Below, in pieces: positions 2,994 to 9,460 of a stretch of 64,000 bases of DNA. The position numbers and the translations under genes are program-made. Numbering within the stretch: the stretch's first letter is position 1; the number at the start of each line of letters is the position of its first letter. This DNA comes from an uncultured Lentisphaeria bacterium (GTDB lineage: Bacteria > Fidelibacterota > UBA8477 > JABMPR01). Where the stretch lies: NCBI GenBank assembly GCA_964508765.1, contig CAZDVD010000007.1, forward strand, positions 13,262 to 77,261, read 5' to 3'. The notes beneath the pieces were generated by a model. That model was not told the origin of the DNA. It saw nothing but the letters and a program-made list of their open reading frames with translations, and made no database searches.

Positions 2994-3028
2994 TCTTACA
3001 TTTCGCCAGATAACGAAATGGAGGAAAA

Positions 3029-3388
3029 ATGAGATCCACCACAAATGTATACAAAGCTCTGTCTGACACCAATCGCTTGCGGATTCTTATGATGCTCAAA
3101 GAAAAATCTCTCTGTGTGTGTGAGATGGTAGATATTCTTGAGCTGGCAAACTCCACGGTATCAAAACACTTGTCCATCCTGCGAAATGCGAACTTGATTA
3201 TGGATGAAAAAAATGGACGCTGGGTGAATTACCGTATCGCTCTGGCTGAAGAATCCAATGATATTGACTTTGTTCTTGCTCATCTAGAGCAACAATTAAA
3301 TAACGAGGCTCTTGTTATGCGTGACCGGGAAAAACTCAGGAGTGTGGATCGATATGCCATTTGCGGCCCGACCGTCAAAACAAAATAA
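3029..3388 (+). CDS. arsR: ArsR/SmtB family transcriptional repressor, As(III)-type with a CVC site
   Basis: HTH region plus the motif SLCVCEMVDIL, matching the ELCVCDL metalloid-binding site of R773 ArsR. Confidence 0.8.
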   Translation: MRSTTNVYKALSDTNRLRILMMLKEKSLCVCEMVDILELANSTVSKHLSILRNANLIMDEKNGRWVNYRIALAEESNDIDFVLAHLEQQLNNEALVMRDREKLRSVDRYAICGPTVKTK

Positions 3389-3425
3389 ACCTGTTTTTGT
3401 ATAGATGAGTTTGGGGGGAAATTGA

Positions 3426-3830
3426 ATGAGCAGGGCAATATTAATCACGGTGGTCTTGATCTTTCTTGGATTTCTAGCTGGTTGTTCAGTAGAGACAAGG
3501 GAAATCAAATCTTCAGAGCAATCGCTTGATCCTGTTGTCACGTTCATAGAGTTGGGTTCTGTCAGATGTATACCCTGTAAGAATATGCAGCCTGTGATGG
3601 CGTCCATTGAAATGAAATATCGCGGGCAAGTCGAGGTTATTTTTTATGATGTCTTGGAGGAAGATCAAAAACAATTTGCTTCCCAATATGGTATAAAGCT
3701 TATCCCCACCCAGGTCTTTCTCGATTCAACAGGGGCCGAGTTGATGCGACACGAGGGGTATTTGCCTGAAGCTGAGATTGATTCCTTTCTAGCCCGGCTT
3801 GGGTTGAGTCCTAATGGGGCAGCGGGATAA
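3426..3830 (+). CDS. Thioredoxin-fold lipoprotein, periplasmic thiol-disulfide oxidoreductase with CIPC active site
   Basis: Signal peptide with lipobox LAGC, CxxC motif CIPC, thioredoxin-like length. Confidence 0.6.
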   Translation: MSRAILITVVLIFLGFLAGCSVETREIKSSEQSLDPVVTFIELGSVRCIPCKNMQPVMASIEMKYRGQVEVIFYDVLEEDQKQFASQYGIKLIPTQVFLDSTGAELMRHEGYLPEAEIDSFLARLGLSPNGAAG

Positions 3831-3831
3831 G

Positions 3832-4437
3832 ATGATCAATCTTTTTGACACGCTCACCCAGGCCATAGAAGGTCAATTCGAGCTAGCCATGGCAGCCTCT
3901 TTTGCTTGGGGTGTCTTGAGTATTCTGTTAAGCCCCTGCCATCTAACCAGTGTACCCTTAGTCATCGGTTATATTTCCAGACAGAATGAATCAACAGGAA
4001 AGTTTAGCGTTTTATTGGCGCTGACATTTGCCCTGGGTATTCTTGCATCTATCTCACTGATTGGAATTATCACGGCCTCAATGGGACGACTCATGGGAGA
4101 TGTTGGGATATGGGGGACGTGGTTGGCAGCCATCCTGTTTGTTGTCTTTGGTTTGTACCTTATGGATGTGATAAGTCTAGCATGGCTTGGGGGTAAAACT
4201 CCACAAATAGAGCGAGCTGGATTTATGGGTGCCTTGTTTCTGGGGCTCGTTTTTGGGATCAGCCTTGGACCCTGTACATTTGCCTTTCTTGCTCCAGTTT
4301 TAACTGTGGCAATACCCATGGCTCAAGAGTCAATTTTCAAAGCCTTGCTTTTGATCTTGTCTTTTGGATTTGGGCACAGTCTGGTATATGTCGTCGGTGG
4401 AGGGGTGGCTGGAATCATAGTTCGTTATATCACCTAG
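3832..4437 (+). CDS. ccdA: CcdA/DsbD-like membrane thiol-disulfide electron transporter (DsbD_2 family)
   Basis: Polytopic membrane protein with the two conserved TM cysteines (LSPCHL and LGPCTFAFLAP). The start is probably MINLFD at 3832 rather than the ORF-track 3814. Confidence 0.65.
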   Translation: MINLFDTLTQAIEGQFELAMAASFAWGVLSILLSPCHLTSVPLVIGYISRQNESTGKFSVLLALTFALGILASISLIGIITASMGRLMGDVGIWGTWLAAILFVVFGLYLMDVISLAWLGGKTPQIERAGFMGALFLGLVFGISLGPCTFAFLAPVLTVAIPMAQESIFKALLLILSFGFGHSLVYVVGGGVAGIIVRYIT

Positions 4438-4553
4438 TCAAAAAATAATAGAGGGCCCTTATACCTTAAAAGAGGTCTGGGCTTTCTGGTTTTCTTCGGT
4501 GGTCTGTATTTTGGATATATCGCATTCTAATAATTACAGTAGAGAGAAAAAAC

Positions 4554-4928
4554 ATGAATAAACCTTCACGCAAAGATTTGAAACGAGAATACAAGGAAAA
4601 AACTCGTATTCCAGGCATCTTTCAGATCAAGAATCACAAAAATGGAAAAGTACTCCTGGGTAGTAGTCTCAATATTGATGGCCCCTTGAATGCCCACGAG
4701 TTCATGCTTTATTCTGGATCTCATCGAAATCGTGATCTTCAGTCAGACTACAAAACATTTGGTGCTGAGGCATTTTCTTTTGATGTCCTCGCTGTTGTCG
4801 AATCAAGCAATAAATCAGGTTTTAATATTGAAGCTGAATTGCAGACATTAGAGCAGCTATGGCTCGATGAACTTAAGCCCTTTGGCGAAAACGGCTATAA
4901 TGTGAACGGAAAGATTCGGCAGGCGTAG
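4554..4928 (+). CDS. Free-standing GIY-YIG nuclease domain protein
   Basis: GIFQIKN...GKVLLGSS (GIY/YIG-like), NRDLQSDY, a conserved Glu region and a terminal GYNV. About 120 aa, as in small stand-alone GIY-YIG proteins. Confidence 0.5.
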   Translation: MNKPSRKDLKREYKEKTRIPGIFQIKNHKNGKVLLGSSLNIDGPLNAHEFMLYSGSHRNRDLQSDYKTFGAEAFSFDVLAVVESSNKSGFNIEAELQTLEQLWLDELKPFGENGYNVNGKIRQA

Positions 4929-4931
4929 AAA

Positions 4932-5963
4932 TTGAAAACTGAAAATATGCTGAAGAAATATCCACTGTCAACATTTGTTTTTTTGCTGATTATCTGGATT
5001 GTGCTGTATTCCAACCTGGTCGCCTTTGCTGATTGGGTGGTTTCGATGTTACCTGTTCATTCTGATAGTCATCTTGGTGAAGCGCTTGCTTTTTTTATAT
5101 ATGACGCCCCTAAGGTTCTATTACTCCTTTCCGGGGTTGTCTTTTTTATGGGTATTATCAATACCTGGTTTACACCTGAGCGCACAAGAGCCCTTCTGGC
5201 CGGTCGTTCGCTTGGTCTGGCTAATATTCTGGCTGCCTCTCTGGGGGTTGTTACTCCTTTTTGTTCTTGCTCAGCTGTCCCGCTGTTTATAGGATTTGTT
5301 CAGGCCGGTGTACCTCTTGGGGTAACTTTTTCCTTTCTCATTGCAGCCCCCATGGTGAACGAAATTGCCCTGACACTTCTTTTTGGTTTGTTTGGCTGGA
5401 AGATCGCCATGCTATATCTGGTCCTTGGTTTGATGGTTGCCATTTTTGGTGGTTTGGTTTTGGGTCGTCTACATCTTGAAAAATATCTTGAGCAATGGGT
5501 TCAGGACATACCCAAAAAGCAGATTTCTTTCCAGGTTGAAGCTACCTCTTTTTCTCAGCGGATAGATGCTGGATATCTTGCAGTGAAAGAAATTCTTGGG
5601 AATGTCTGGATTTACATATTATTGGGTATTAGCGTTGGTGCATTTATCCATGGTTACGTCCCAGCGAATTTTATGGCTTCCTTTATGGGTAAAGATGCCT
5701 GGTGGTCTGTACCTCTTGCTGTGATCTTTGGGATACCCATGTACAGTAGCGCTGCAGGAATTATTCCTGTCGTTCAAGCGCTTCTGGCTAAAGGTGCCGC
5801 CCTTGGAACTTCCCTAGCATTTATGATGAGTGTTGTTGCTTTATCTCTTCCGGAGATGATCATTTTACGCAATGTCCTTTCCGTAAAACTAATTGGACTT
5901 TTTATCGGTATTGTTGCTACTGGTATTCTGTTTGTAGGCTTAATATTTAATATTGTTCTATAG
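4932..5963 (+). CDS. arsP: ArsP-type permease (COG0701/DUF318 family organoarsenical efflux permease)
   Basis: Eight to ten TM permease carrying the diagnostic TPFCSCS motif (VVTPFCSCSAVPLF). Confidence 0.7.
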   Translation: MKTENMLKKYPLSTFVFLLIIWIVLYSNLVAFADWVVSMLPVHSDSHLGEALAFFIYDAPKVLLLLSGVVFFMGIINTWFTPERTRALLAGRSLGLANILAASLGVVTPFCSCSAVPLFIGFVQAGVPLGVTFSFLIAAPMVNEIALTLLFGLFGWKIAMLYLVLGLMVAIFGGLVLGRLHLEKYLEQWVQDIPKKQISFQVEATSFSQRIDAGYLAVKEILGNVWIYILLGISVGAFIHGYVPANFMASFMGKDAWWSVPLAVIFGIPMYSSAAGIIPVVQALLAKGAALGTSLAFMMSVVALSLPEMIILRNVLSVKLIGLFIGIVATGILFVGLIFNIVL

Positions 5964-5975
5964 GAAAATTATTTC

Positions 5976-6215
5976 ATGATAAACATCAAAGTTTTAGGTG
6001 GTGGTTGTAATAACTGTAAAGTGACTTACAAATTAATAGAGGATATAGCTCGTGAGCAGGGGAAGCGTGTTGAGCTTGAAAAAGTGGAAGGCTTTCAAAA
6101 GATCATGTCATATGATGTGATGTCCACTCCTTGTGTGGTTATTGATGAGGTTGTTGTCCATCGTGGCGGAGTTCCATCAAGATACCAGGTTGAAAACTGG
6201 TTTAAAGAGATGTAA
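5976..6215 (+). CDS. Small thioredoxin-like protein (redox-active disulfide protein 2 type, CxxC)
   Basis: 79 aa with GGGCNNCK CxxC. This family is common at the end of ars or metal-resistance operons. Confidence 0.55.
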   Translation: MINIKVLGGGCNNCKVTYKLIEDIAREQGKRVELEKVEGFQKIMSYDVMSTPCVVIDEVVVHRGGVPSRYQVENWFKEM

Positions 6216-6384
6216 TACTGACCAGATTTATTATGCTATTTATGCTTAGGCATGTTATTTAACTGCATATGTCTGTTTTGATCTGAAAATAGCATTTTCA
6301 TCTCTAATCATCTAGATTTTGTAATTATGATTCAGCTTTTGAATAATAGCTTAAATCGAGTGGGTCTGAATCGTTCTATTTGAA

Positions 6385-6846
6385 TTATTTGGACTTTGTA
6401 TATTCAAATAGCTGATAGTTTGACTTTTCCATACCTAGTTTTGTATACACTTTTTGAGCATTAAGATTCTTTTCGTCAACATACAATCTTACACCTGCAA
6501 AATTAGAATCTTTTTCCACGAGAGTTTTAACATAATCATACATTAGTTTATATAAACCTTGTTGTCGATATTCTTTTTGAACAAAGACACTCTGGATCCA
6601 CATGTACATCCCGTTGCGCCAGTCACTCCACTCATAGGTAATCATTAAACTAGCTCTTACGGTCTGGTCTAATTCGCAAATGATGTAGAAACCATGCTTT
6701 GGATCCTGGAAAACTGCCTTTACTCCTGAGTTTAAGATCGAACGGTCTAATATCTTTTCTTCTGTCTCCAAAGCCATTGCTTCATTGAATTCTACAATGG
6801 TTGATATATCCTCGATGGTAGCCCTACGGATTTTTGTTTCAGACAT
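6385..6846 (-). CDS. GNAT family N-acetyltransferase
   Basis: GNAT-like motifs (ATIEDISTIVEFNEA ... QQGLYKLMYDYV). The start is probably MSETK, 12 codons inside the ORF. Confidence 0.55.
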   Translation of the reverse strand: MSETKIRRATIEDISTIVEFNEAMALETEEKILDRSILNSGVKAVFQDPKHGFYIICELDQTVRASLMITYEWSDWRNGMYMWIQSVFVQKEYRQQGLYKLMYDYVKTLVEKDSNFAGVRLYVDEKNLNAQKVYTKLGMEKSNYQLFEYTKSK

Positions 6847-7519
6847 TTTTATTTTTTTTTGGCTTAAAACCGATGCGATCATAAGGATTTATCACACTTG
6901 AAATAATATTCCGAAGATGTGCATTTATTCGTTTTAGATATCGGTAATACAACACGAGAACAGCCACGCTTGGAGAATCTAGTTTCTCCTCATTTTTGAC
7001 AATGAGATGTTCAATACTTTGATCGCAGGTCCGTCCGATCTCTTTAGTCTCTGAATACATTTCAAGGGCTACGTCTTCGTCACCCGTTTCAATACATTCA
7101 GGTACTTCTTTGAACATTTTTTTTATGGCTGCTTCTATTCTATGAAGTTTATCTTTTACTTCTTTTCCTTGTAGCTCTTCAGGATGCATTTCTGTGAGAT
7201 CAACTATATTCTTTATATAGTCTCCGATACGTTCAACGTCTACTATTACAGTTGATAAAACCAAACCTGCTGCTAAGCTATCGCTTCCCTGAACCGCAAG
7301 ATGAGTTATAACTTTTCTTCGAATATCCCGCTCATATTTATTAATGAGTTTATCTTTTTTGAAAATGAGCTTTTGTACTGTTTTACGATTGTCTCCCCAC
7401 AATGCATCTGTAGCATCATTAAACATCTCGGCATCAATGTTGATCGCTTCGTATGTAAGGTCCCATGCCTCAGTTAGCAAGTTGTCACTTGTCCATAGAT
7501 TTCTTATTTCTTTCCACAT
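6839..7519 (-). CDS. PhoU-domain protein (phosphate uptake regulator-like)
   Basis: Two PhoU repeats with VERIGDYIKNI-type motifs, adjacent to a Na/Pi cotransporter gene. Confidence 0.65.
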   Translation of the reverse strand: MWKEIRNLWTSDNLLTEAWDLTYEAINIDAEMFNDATDALWGDNRKTVQKLIFKKDKLINKYERDIRRKVITHLAVQGSDSLAAGLVLSTVIVDVERIGDYIKNIVDLTEMHPEELQGKEVKDKLHRIEAAIKKMFKEVPECIETGDEDVALEMYSETKEIGRTCDQSIEHLIVKNEEKLDSPSVAVLVLYYRYLKRINAHLRNIISSVINPYDRIGFKPKKNKNV

Positions 7520-8637: not shown

Positions 8638-9039
8638 AATATCCCTCTAGAGGTATGAATCAGTAATGGATCATGTCAAAGACGATAATGACAAATTTTA
8701 TTGTCAATAAGGTCAAGATAATTTCACTCAACATCAAACCAATTAATTTTTCAATGTAACCACTTGAATTTCTAGTTTATTCCTGTTTTTTGATTTACAG
8801 GATTTCAAGTCATCTATATTGCGTGTTATGGCACAAAAAGCTTCAATATTTTATCTTTGAAATTCAATGATATGTCTTCCCCATGATACGGAGAAGACTT
8901 TATACGCCAAAACTATGTGCATATATTGGCACTATTATAGAAAAATACCTGAATTCATATATGACTAATTGGTCGCTTATATACTATAGTAATATTAATT
9001 TAATATAAATAGTAGTAGTAGTATAGTGTGCTAATATTG

Positions 9040-9068
9040 TTGACAACTATTGAGAAAAATATATATAA
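9040..9068 (+). promoter_or_regulatory. Near-consensus sigma70-like promoter (TTGACA-17-ATATAA) inside a long AT-rich non-coding gap
   Basis: TTGACA at 9040-9045, a 17-nt spacer, then ATATAA. No plus-strand CDS follows, so it could drive an sRNA or antisense transcript. Confidence 0.2.
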
Positions 9069-9460
9069 GGCCCATAAAAACAATATGATATACCATATAA
9101 ACCAGAGCTGTATTTTTGTTGATAATCAGATATCCAAAGTTAAGAAGTGTTTAACTGATGGTAGATAAAGTATCCTTATAAACAATTCTAAGATGGCGCG
9201 TATAAAAAGGGCTTATGTGGATAACTGAAATGTTGATATATGGAATAACCCCATTTCTTTTTCATAAGTTATTAAAAAACAGGTTCCAATCATTATCGTA
9301 TTCGAAGATGGAATGTTTATAACTAATACCAGGACTTTAAAAAAATGGGTTTTTGCCCACAAGAATGTAGATGACACATTCAGGAATGCAGAAAAAAGTA
9401 GAGATGAATCTCTCCAATAAAAGGGAGAGATAAGAATTATTTTATTTTGTGATGAGTGAG

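Follow-up and report, generated by a model that had tools for sequence, protein, structure and literature searches.

The stretch of DNA analyzed here, a 64-kilobase (kb) window from the genome of a marine Marinimicrobia bacterium, carries six consecutive plus-strand open reading frames (ORFs) at positions 3029–6215 that form one tightly spaced operon; coordinates are positions in this window unless another locus is named. The first ORF encodes an ArsR/SmtB-family repressor of 119 amino acids (aa) (3029–3388). It is followed by genes for a predicted exported thioredoxin-fold lipoprotein of 134 aa with a CIPC site (3426–3830), a shortened CcdA/DsbD_TM-type membrane protein of 201 aa (3832–4437), a GIY-YIG-like protein of 124 aa (4554–4928), an ArsP-family permease of 338 aa (4947–5963), and a cytoplasmic thioredoxin-like protein of the Thioredoxin_3 and MTH895/ArsE families, 79 aa long with a CNNC site and referred to here as Trx3 (5976–6215). 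An untranslated 3′ remnant of ccdA corresponding to its last transmembrane helix lies at 4438–4530, and the intergenic gaps measure 1–37 nucleotides (nt) when ccdA is counted as ending at its ancestral stop codon. A candidate ArsR operator, an inverted repeat kept in relatives and assigned to neither strand, precedes the operon at 2996–3020. The original prediction, made from the sequence of this stretch, had listed the same six genes, all of which are present as described, and family searches confirm five of its six assignments. Our surveys of related loci show that the module is widespread and arsenic-associated, and that the window holds a stripped-down copy of it and not a new kind of system.

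The permease and Trx3 constitute the core pair of this module. The permease matched PF03773 (ArsP_1) at 235.5 bits against a cutoff of 32.3, over profile positions 1–293 of 294, so that the proposed ArsP membership withstood a hidden Markov model search and agrees with the TPFCSCS motif. Its ORF opens at a TTG at 4932, and the conserved start is the ATG at 4947, which yields 338 aa as in P0001; the protein is 61–70% identical to its proteobacterial orthologs. The Cys-Ser-Cys (CSC) thiol pair in VTPFCSCSAV, predicted to be membrane-embedded, was invariant in alignments of 9 and of 28 orthologs and shares its 'tPF' context with ArsP cluster 2, within a family whose C(S/T)C motif is universal among homologs (PMC4435449). 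Trx3, with the site GGGCNNC, exceeded the TIGR00412 cutoff (83.8 versus 62), scored 87.2 with PF13192, and matched MTH895 (1ILO) at an E-value of 1.4e-5; its family is named 'MTH895/ArsE family' in NCBIfam. Two independent natural permease::Trx3 fusions (P0029 and P0057) carry Trx3 at the permease C-terminus behind 5-aa linkers, which places Trx3 on the side of that terminus and argues for a direct interaction between the two proteins.

Several further observations concern these two genes. In the Marinimicrobia locus L093 (positions 5377–7041 of that locus), a natural permease::Trx3 fusion gene is followed by a gene for a 107-aa glyoxalase-domain protein, which has no match in NCBIfam and hence none that would link it to ArsI-type C–As lyases. 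The Trx3 of the window contains a third cysteine, Cys53 ('STPCVV', 6132–6134), beside the cis-proline and near the CNNC site; this residue is glycine in all 11 aligned orthologs, so that among them the cysteine was seen in the window genome only. The Trx3 encoded on the Sulfuricella denitrificans plasmid pSCD (L101, 476–745, minus strand) has a cysteine-rich C-terminal tail, ESCCGCCGKE, a hint that proteins of the Trx3 family may bind metal(loid)s directly.

Two surveys were used to examine gene neighborhoods. The permease-side survey, limited to one genome per species, covered 80 loci with orthologs 61–81% identical, mostly from Betaproteobacteria (79 proteobacterial loci, L009–L087). The CcdA-side survey, a metagenome scan with a four-sequence CcdA alignment, provided 80 loci (L102–L181) with orthologs 44–79% identical, among which neighbors were counted in the 48 that span 4 kb or more. 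Overall, at least 570 CcdA-type and at least 580 permease-type matches were obtained. Trx3 directly adjoins the permease in 57 of the 80 permease loci and is found no more than 4 kb away in 77; of the other three loci, two are truncated contigs. Within 5 kb of the 80 permease orthologs, arsenic genes were represented by ACR3 (23 loci), low-molecular-weight-type ArsC (16), ArsD (6), and ArsA (5), and other genes by extracytoplasmic function (ECF) sigma factors (36), cation diffusion facilitator (CDF) transporters (22), metallo-beta-lactamase (MBL)-fold proteins (14), OsmC (12), and rhodanese (10). In 36 of the 80 genomes, the permease–Trx3 pair is preceded not by ArsR but by an ECF sigma factor, with SigZ models as its closest matches, which indicates that the core pair is under a different regulatory regime there.

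On the CcdA side, the 48 loci contained a thioredoxin in 44 cases, Trx3 in 39, ArsR in 30, an ArsP-family permease in 28, ACR3 in 17, an ArsM-like gene in 10, and ArsC in 10. These neighbors almost always lie on the same strand, most commonly in the order ArsR–permease–Trx3–Trx–CcdA. The recurrence of this gene combination in dozens of unrelated contigs indicates more than chance, and the synteny check thus extends the link between the permease and the CcdA–thioredoxin pair well beyond the window genome. Seven permeases of the CcdA-centered loci have the TPFCSCS motif (~340 aa) and nineteen have LAVCSCT (~430–470 aa), representing both clusters of Yang et al. (PMC4435449). That two diverged ArsP branches keep the same partners argues for a functional rather than a historical link. 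A clean split of Trx3 proteins into CxNC partners of the permease and CxKC partners of CcdA was considered and rejected, as CxKC also follows LAVCSCT-type permeases; in the CcdA-centered loci, the two subtypes track permease type only partly.

Individual proteobacterial islands illustrate how closely the module is associated with arsenic genes. A plasmid of Comamonas sp. C11 (NZ_CP101745) has the order ArsR–ArsC–phosphatase–ArsD–ArsA–ArsC–ACR3–sigma factor–permease (66% identical)–Trx3–rhodanese–OsmC–DUF2789–CDF. Plasmid pSCD encodes on one strand ArsR, rhodanese, ArsC, ACR3, a GDCCVxC protein, the permease (62%), ArsM, and Trx3 (58%), and continues with ArsC, a sigma factor, a resistance-nodulation-division (RND) system, the thioredoxin (37%), CcdA (43%), OsmC, TauE, and CDF. 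Other proteobacterial arrays run permease–MBL–Trx3–rhodanese–Trx–CcdA or permease–Trx3–rhodanese–OsmC. The closest published description of the combination dates from 2010, when CcdA and a thioredoxin, along with redox-active disulfide protein 2, were listed as determinants of ars operons; the trio was found in eight instances, seven of them with arsC, a role in arsenate reduction was proposed, and 61 arsP genes were counted in ars operons (PMC2963123, section 3.9 for the trio). The three redox genes likewise occur in ars contexts in our data. The window differs in having no arsC, and in the CcdA-side survey the trio keeps company with an ArsP-family permease in 28 of 48 loci versus ArsC in 10 of 48. 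The view of the cluster as an atypical combination must accordingly be given up, given its description in ars operons since 2010 and the frequency of the order ArsR–permease–Trx3–Trx–CcdA in metagenomes. Nor can the module be defined by a thiol pathway that takes the place of an arsenate reductase or an arsenite pump beside ArsP, because the same genes adjoin ArsC, ACR3, and ArsM elsewhere.

The repressor and its upstream region are well conserved. ArsR exceeded the cutoffs of HTH_5 (PF01022; 57.9 versus 22 bits) and NF033788 (87.1 versus 55), and E. coli ArsR matched it at 9e-15. Its CVC pair (SLCVCEM), at the alpha-3 position, aligns with ELCVCDL of E. coli ArsR, and a C-terminal cysteine is also present; the third cysteine of the E. 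coli site is replaced by valine. Cys-x-Cys in the alpha-3 helix is the trait of As(III)-sensing ArsR proteins of the E. coli/R773 type and served here as the criterion of membership, and the CVC pair is kept in 13 of 14 ArsRs upstream of orthologous permeases. The palindrome TTACATTTCG-CCAGATAA-CGAAATG (2996–3020), which occurs once in the window, ends 8 nt upstream of the arsR start codon. Across the upstream regions of four Marinimicrobia loci, whose flanks have diverged, these 25 nt hardly vary, with a single spacer base changed in L006. Furthermore, the core ATTTCG-N8-CGAAAT lies 5–15 nt before arsR in 16 fetched loci, including those with distant ArsR orthologs and other gene orders, and is missing from L182, the sole operon without arsR. 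Conservation at a fixed distance from arsR while the flanks diverge supports an autoregulated ArsR operator; this is good comparative evidence for such a site, at which we infer that ArsR binds. A promoter and terminator scan gave counts no better than those from shuffled sequences; this lineage may use other promoter types.

The exported thioredoxin and CcdA would form the periplasmic branch of the module. The thioredoxin scored above the cutoffs of Pfam Thioredoxin (35.9 versus 23.5) and Thioredoxin_2 (39.4), and its N-terminus, MSRAILITVVLIFLGFLAGC, reads directly as a lipoprotein signal with an LAGC lipobox. The CIPC site is present in 47 of 76 thioredoxin orthologs adjoining CcdA, and RCIPCK is conserved in the 37% identical pSCD ortholog. 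For ccdA, alignment with L003 and L006 places the conserved start codon at 3832, one base past the thioredoxin stop at 3830; the ORF list had it at 3814. The product matched PF02683 (DsbD_TM) at 33.5 against 27.1, and an intact ortholog matched the Thermus thermophilus CcdA structure 5VKV at an E-value of 2.6e-6. The Pro-Cys motifs SPC and GPC of transmembrane helices 1 and 4 are invariant in nine aligned orthologs and retained in the window copy, and of the 82 CcdA-like ORFs found across the 80 metagenome loci, 79 contain both. Judged from sequence, the way in which this ccdA abuts an exported thioredoxin gene marks its product as a classical electron conduit.

In the window genome, this conduit is probably compromised. 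Codon 202 of ccdA, counted from the conserved start, is TAG (4435–4437), where L003 and L006 have TGG, and the resulting protein is 201 aa long, versus 232–233 aa in orthologs. It has lost the final ~25 codons and with them helix 6, which each of the nine aligned orthologs retains, and therefore does not possess the complete six-helix DsbD_TM core. The same TAG allele is found in two further assemblies, L001 and L002 (three in all), and 11 further positions across 8.1 kb tell L001 apart from the window, so the stop is not an assembly error. The proposed wiring of ArsP to a thiol relay is thus conserved and arsenic-linked across loci, but in the window genome itself the premature stop has probably impaired the relay.

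These findings raise the alternative that the periplasmic branch is a decaying relic in the window genome, where ArsR, the permease, and Trx3, together with the GIY-YIG-like gene, would be the only functional members. The loss of a helix retained by all aligned orthologs and the presence of the nonsense allele in three assemblies favor this view, as do Marinimicrobia operons without thioredoxin and CcdA (L093 and L182), which indicate that the branch is dispensable. On the other side, the upstream thioredoxin gene is intact, and a five-helix CcdA might keep partial activity. Moreover, the 93-nt remnant runs in frame, without further stops or an internal start codon, to the ancestral TAA at 4528–4530 and aligns with the C-terminal 'GGLYFGY' helix of orthologs at ~63% residue identity (hand count), which would fit either a recent mutation or some read-through. 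We consider the arguments for and against a relic to be evenly balanced.

The remaining gene of the operon has a different history. The GIY-YIG-like protein scored under the cutoffs of PF01541 (18.5 versus 22.6) and TIGR01453 (42.7 versus 56.05) and matched phrog_7168 at 7e-11, over profile positions 3–94 of 284 only. By this comparison, its homology to the N-terminal catalytic domain of phage homing endonucleases is clear, and at 124 aa it has no DNA-binding domain such as these enzymes carry. Of the proposed GIY-YIG nuclease, the relationship to the homing endonuclease domain therefore stands, with the qualifications that the protein is sub-threshold in Pfam and TIGRFAM and that the gene accompanies the module in Marinimicrobia only. 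The family, of ~122 aa, is 55–60% identical across phyla, in unrelated gene contexts. In its alignment, the Glu and Asn equivalents of the I-TevI site are invariant, and Phe, Leu, and Pro occupy what we take to be the positions of I-TevI Tyr6, Tyr17, and Arg27.

Several operon forms occur among Marinimicrobia, always downstream of the isocitrate dehydrogenase (IDH) gene wherever a contig includes the upstream flank. The window has ArsR–Trx–CcdA–GIY–permease–Trx3; L091, L092, and L104 have ArsR–Trx3–Trx–CcdA–GIY–permease–Trx3; L183 has ArsR–GIY–Trx3–Trx–CcdA–permease–Trx3; L093 has ArsR–GIY–permease::Trx3; L182 has GIY–permease–Trx3; and L003, L004, L006, L008, and L102 have ArsR–Trx–CcdA–permease–Trx3, from which the GIY-like gene is absent. 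In L182, the GIY-like gene stands where arsR would be. The gene adjoins the module in 1 of 80 CcdA-centered and 0 of 79 proteobacterial loci; it is a long-standing, Marinimicrobia-only member of the operon and not part of the module outside the phylum. In a neighbor-joining tree of permeases, GIY-positive lineages are basal and GIY-negative ones nested, which suggests early gain and later loss. Two other origins were rejected. A strain-specific insertion, drawn from the alignment with L003 and L006, is at odds with homologs 66–72% identical in the same operon across several Marinimicrobia architectures. A phage-borne mobile gene is at odds with a viral contig scan that gave two distant matches of 34–38% identity, and is also disfavored by the contexts in other phyla, which are unrelated to one another.

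The operon has the same surroundings in related contigs: IDH lies upstream, and downstream are genes for a GNAT protein, PhoU, and a Na/Pi cotransporter. No Rfam or tRNA match was obtained anywhere in the window. Between the Na/Pi cotransporter and SurA-like genes lies an AT-rich (GC ~0.31), ORF-poor gap of ~0.8 kb (8638–9460); a similar gap occurs in relatives, also without Rfam or tRNA match. On the minus strand, a 56-aa Lys/Glu-rich ORF (153–323), which lies near genes for a Ni-superoxide dismutase and a nucleotidyltransferase-like protein, holds the same position in L003, L006, and L093.

Comparison with characterized systems helps to delimit what the module might do. The ArsP of Campylobacter jejuni, in the Organo-Arsenical Exporter family of TCDB, exports methylarsenite (MAs(III)) and trivalent roxarsone, whereas it does not export arsenite (PMC6205960). 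The window permease resembles it at the level of family traits, namely PF03773 membership, a size class of ~300–340 aa, a membrane C(S/T)C motif, and control by ArsR, and orthologs of the window permease lie in ars operons. ArsEFG of Shewanella putrefaciens 200, linked to organoarsenical resistance in work cited within PMC9144182, likewise combines a thioredoxin-like protein of the ArsE family with a DsbD-like gene, and NCBIfam names a DsbD_TM-type family 'ArsG aromatic aminobenzylarsenical efflux permease'. The window CcdA, in contrast, appears to be a classical CcdA with a periplasmic thioredoxin partner; it scored 43.9 against the cutoff of 200 of the ArsG model NF040495, which the intact ortholog in L003 did not match at 1e-5, and it is therefore not a member of the ArsG family. 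With the CcdA–ResA/TlpA and DsbD pathways it shares the Pro-Cys motifs in helices 1 and 4, a gene abutting that of an exported CxxC thioredoxin, and an available cytoplasmic thioredoxin-fold donor. It differs in standing in a metalloid-resistance operon, not in a locus for cytochrome c maturation or sporulation, and in lacking helix 6.

Two further parallels concern the permease–Trx3 pair. In SaoE–SaoT of the SAO locus of Clostridioides difficile, for which handling of thiophilic metal species has been proposed (Haft, bioRxiv 10.1101/2022.07.06.499078), an ArsP-family CSC permease also stands beside a small thioredoxin-like protein, SaoT having a variant of the CxxC site. The window permease nevertheless falls far short of the SaoE model, other SAO genes (the ABC importer and the MerB-like SaoL) are absent, and SaoT is related to MJ0307 whereas Trx3 is related to MTH895. 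The hand-off from ArsD to ArsA offers a looser likeness, in which a small thioredoxin-fold protein with clustered cysteines is encoded beside an exporter. In structure, the model of the Trx3 domain fits onto ArsD 3KGK with a TMt of 0.54 and onto many thioredoxins as well; the likeness is an analogy only, with no specific sequence relationship, and the partner of Trx3 is a secondary permease and not an ATPase.

Taken together, we read the locus, with moderate confidence, as an operon that ArsR represses and that confers resistance to a thiol-reactive metalloid; the most likely one is trivalent arsenic, in the form of arsenite and/or methyl- or aryl-arsenite. Without inducer, ArsR would sit on the palindrome, overlapping the promoter and leader, and would be released when a trivalent arsenical occupies its CVC pair. 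The permease would then export the arsenical through its membrane-embedded CSC pair, with substrate, direction of transport, and all thiol chemistry inferred. Given that Trx3 is nearly always a neighbor of the permease and in some relatives is joined to it in one protein, we propose that it acts directly on the permease from the cytoplasm, either keeping the cysteine pair reduced or handing over a dithiol-bound substrate. Through CcdA, reducing equivalents would cross the membrane and reach the CIPC lipoprotein, which may keep thiols exposed to the periplasm in the reduced state, whether they belong to the lipoprotein or to the permease in its outward-facing form.

Several points weigh against this reading. 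No homolog of ACR3, ArsB, either ArsC type, ArsA, ArsD, or ArsM occurs within the 64-kb window, as the original prediction had stated for arsB, acr3, arsC, and arsM. The CVC site alone leaves the ArsR effector unfixed. PF03773 also takes in proposed Cu/Zn and unknown-metal exporters, and the permease scored below both curated equivalogs, SaoE (NF040736; 130 versus 325 bits) and SO_0444 Cu/Zn efflux (NF033936; 97.1 versus 300 bits). The CDF, ECF sigma, MBL-fold, OsmC, and rhodanese neighbors would fit soft-metal or sulfur-stress roles equally well, and such metal and sulfur-stress genes make a broader thiophilic substrate possible. In the window genome, the periplasmic branch has probably been weakened or lost. 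An AlphaFold2 model of the fusion P0029, with a pLDDT of 70.7 and less than 50 in the core of its second half, is too weak as a prediction to show where Trx3 sits with respect to the CSC site; when this model was compared with the PDB by Foldseek, matches were confined to the thioredoxin domain, and a sequence search returned no structure for PF03773. The organoarsenical specificity suggested in the original prediction is overstated, as it was drawn from the family name only.

The first alternative concerning the substrate is general efflux of soft metals (Cd/Zn/Cu/Hg-type), in which the ArsR/SmtB protein would sense metal and the thioredoxin-fold proteins would serve as metallochaperones or in thiol repair. 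The nearest curated NCBIfam families point in this direction, namely SaoE, a proposed metal efflux protein, and the SO_0444 Cu/Zn efflux family (bioRxiv 10.1101/2022.07.06.499078), although both scores are far below their cutoffs. CDF transporters near 22 of the 80 permease orthologs, the RND system and CDF of the Sulfuricella island, and the cysteine-rich tail of its Trx3 would also agree with a metal substrate. However, the most specific recurrent neighbors, on the permease and CcdA sides alike, are ACR3, ArsC, ArsM, and ArsD/ArsA. The window ArsR also has none of the N-terminal cysteines characteristic of CadC-type Cd/Pb sensors. We therefore regard soft-metal efflux as unlikely.

A second alternative, which we regard as quite improbable, is a module against reactive sulfur or thiol stress, with a permease that moves sulfite, thiosulfate, or a persulfide carrier, a BigR-like ArsR, and a thioredoxin–CcdA pair that restores envelope thiols. 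Its appeal lies in the MBL/rhodanese/OsmC arrays in which proteobacterial permease orthologs are often found, in the TauE/SafE and OsmC genes after CcdA in Sulfuricella, and in a weak similarity of ArsR to BigR. That similarity amounts to 34 bits, far under the cutoff of 155. In addition, rhodanese-fold proteins are also found in ars operons, the Marinimicrobia versions have no rhodanese, MBL, or OsmC genes, and in the CcdA-centered set ACR3 outnumbers rhodanese by 17 to 2 among 48 loci. Finally, CcdA and a membrane-anchored thioredoxin are the classical reductant pair of cytochrome c maturation, and the match to 5VKV recalls this role, but a coincidental placement of such ordinary genes beside an unrelated permease is scarcely credible, as Trx3 (39/48), ArsR (30/48), an ArsP-family permease (28/48), and ACR3 (17/48) neighbor CcdA nearly always on the same strand, and no ResB/ResC or like cytochrome c maturation genes were seen beside CcdA in the annotated examples.

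Within the reading as a metalloid-resistance operon, a more ambitious version can be formulated, which we put forward tentatively and find doubtful as a whole: a trans-envelope dithiol 'bucket brigade' for the metalloid. Trx3, in its CxNC form, would capture a trivalent (organo)arsenical and pass it to the CSC pair of the permease and on to the periplasmic CIPC lipoprotein, which CcdA would keep reduced. The system would be the sole arsenic defense of Marinimicrobia in oxygen-deficient waters, tuned to methylarsenite, and the GIY-like protein would be a domesticated, non-nucleolytic accessory of the operon. If true, this would amount to a chaperone–pump–chaperone cascade for arsenic, comparable to copper routes.

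The module is very common and sits in many arsenic islands, and its accessory set is uncharacterized; to our knowledge, nobody has shown what part Trx3 and the CcdA relay play in the work of an ArsP-type exporter. For experiments to that end, the loci described here provide a defined operator sequence, a naturally occurring permease::Trx3 fusion, natural operons that either include or lack the relay, and a naturally arisen ccdA nonsense allele. For annotation, a 'permease', a 'thioredoxin family protein', and a 'cytochrome c biogenesis protein CcdA' beside ArsR can be recognized as one arsenic-associated unit. If the module exports methylarsenite, this operon, as the sole ars-type locus of the window in a marine lineage that is abundant, would have a bearing on how arsenic cycles in oxygen-deficient waters.

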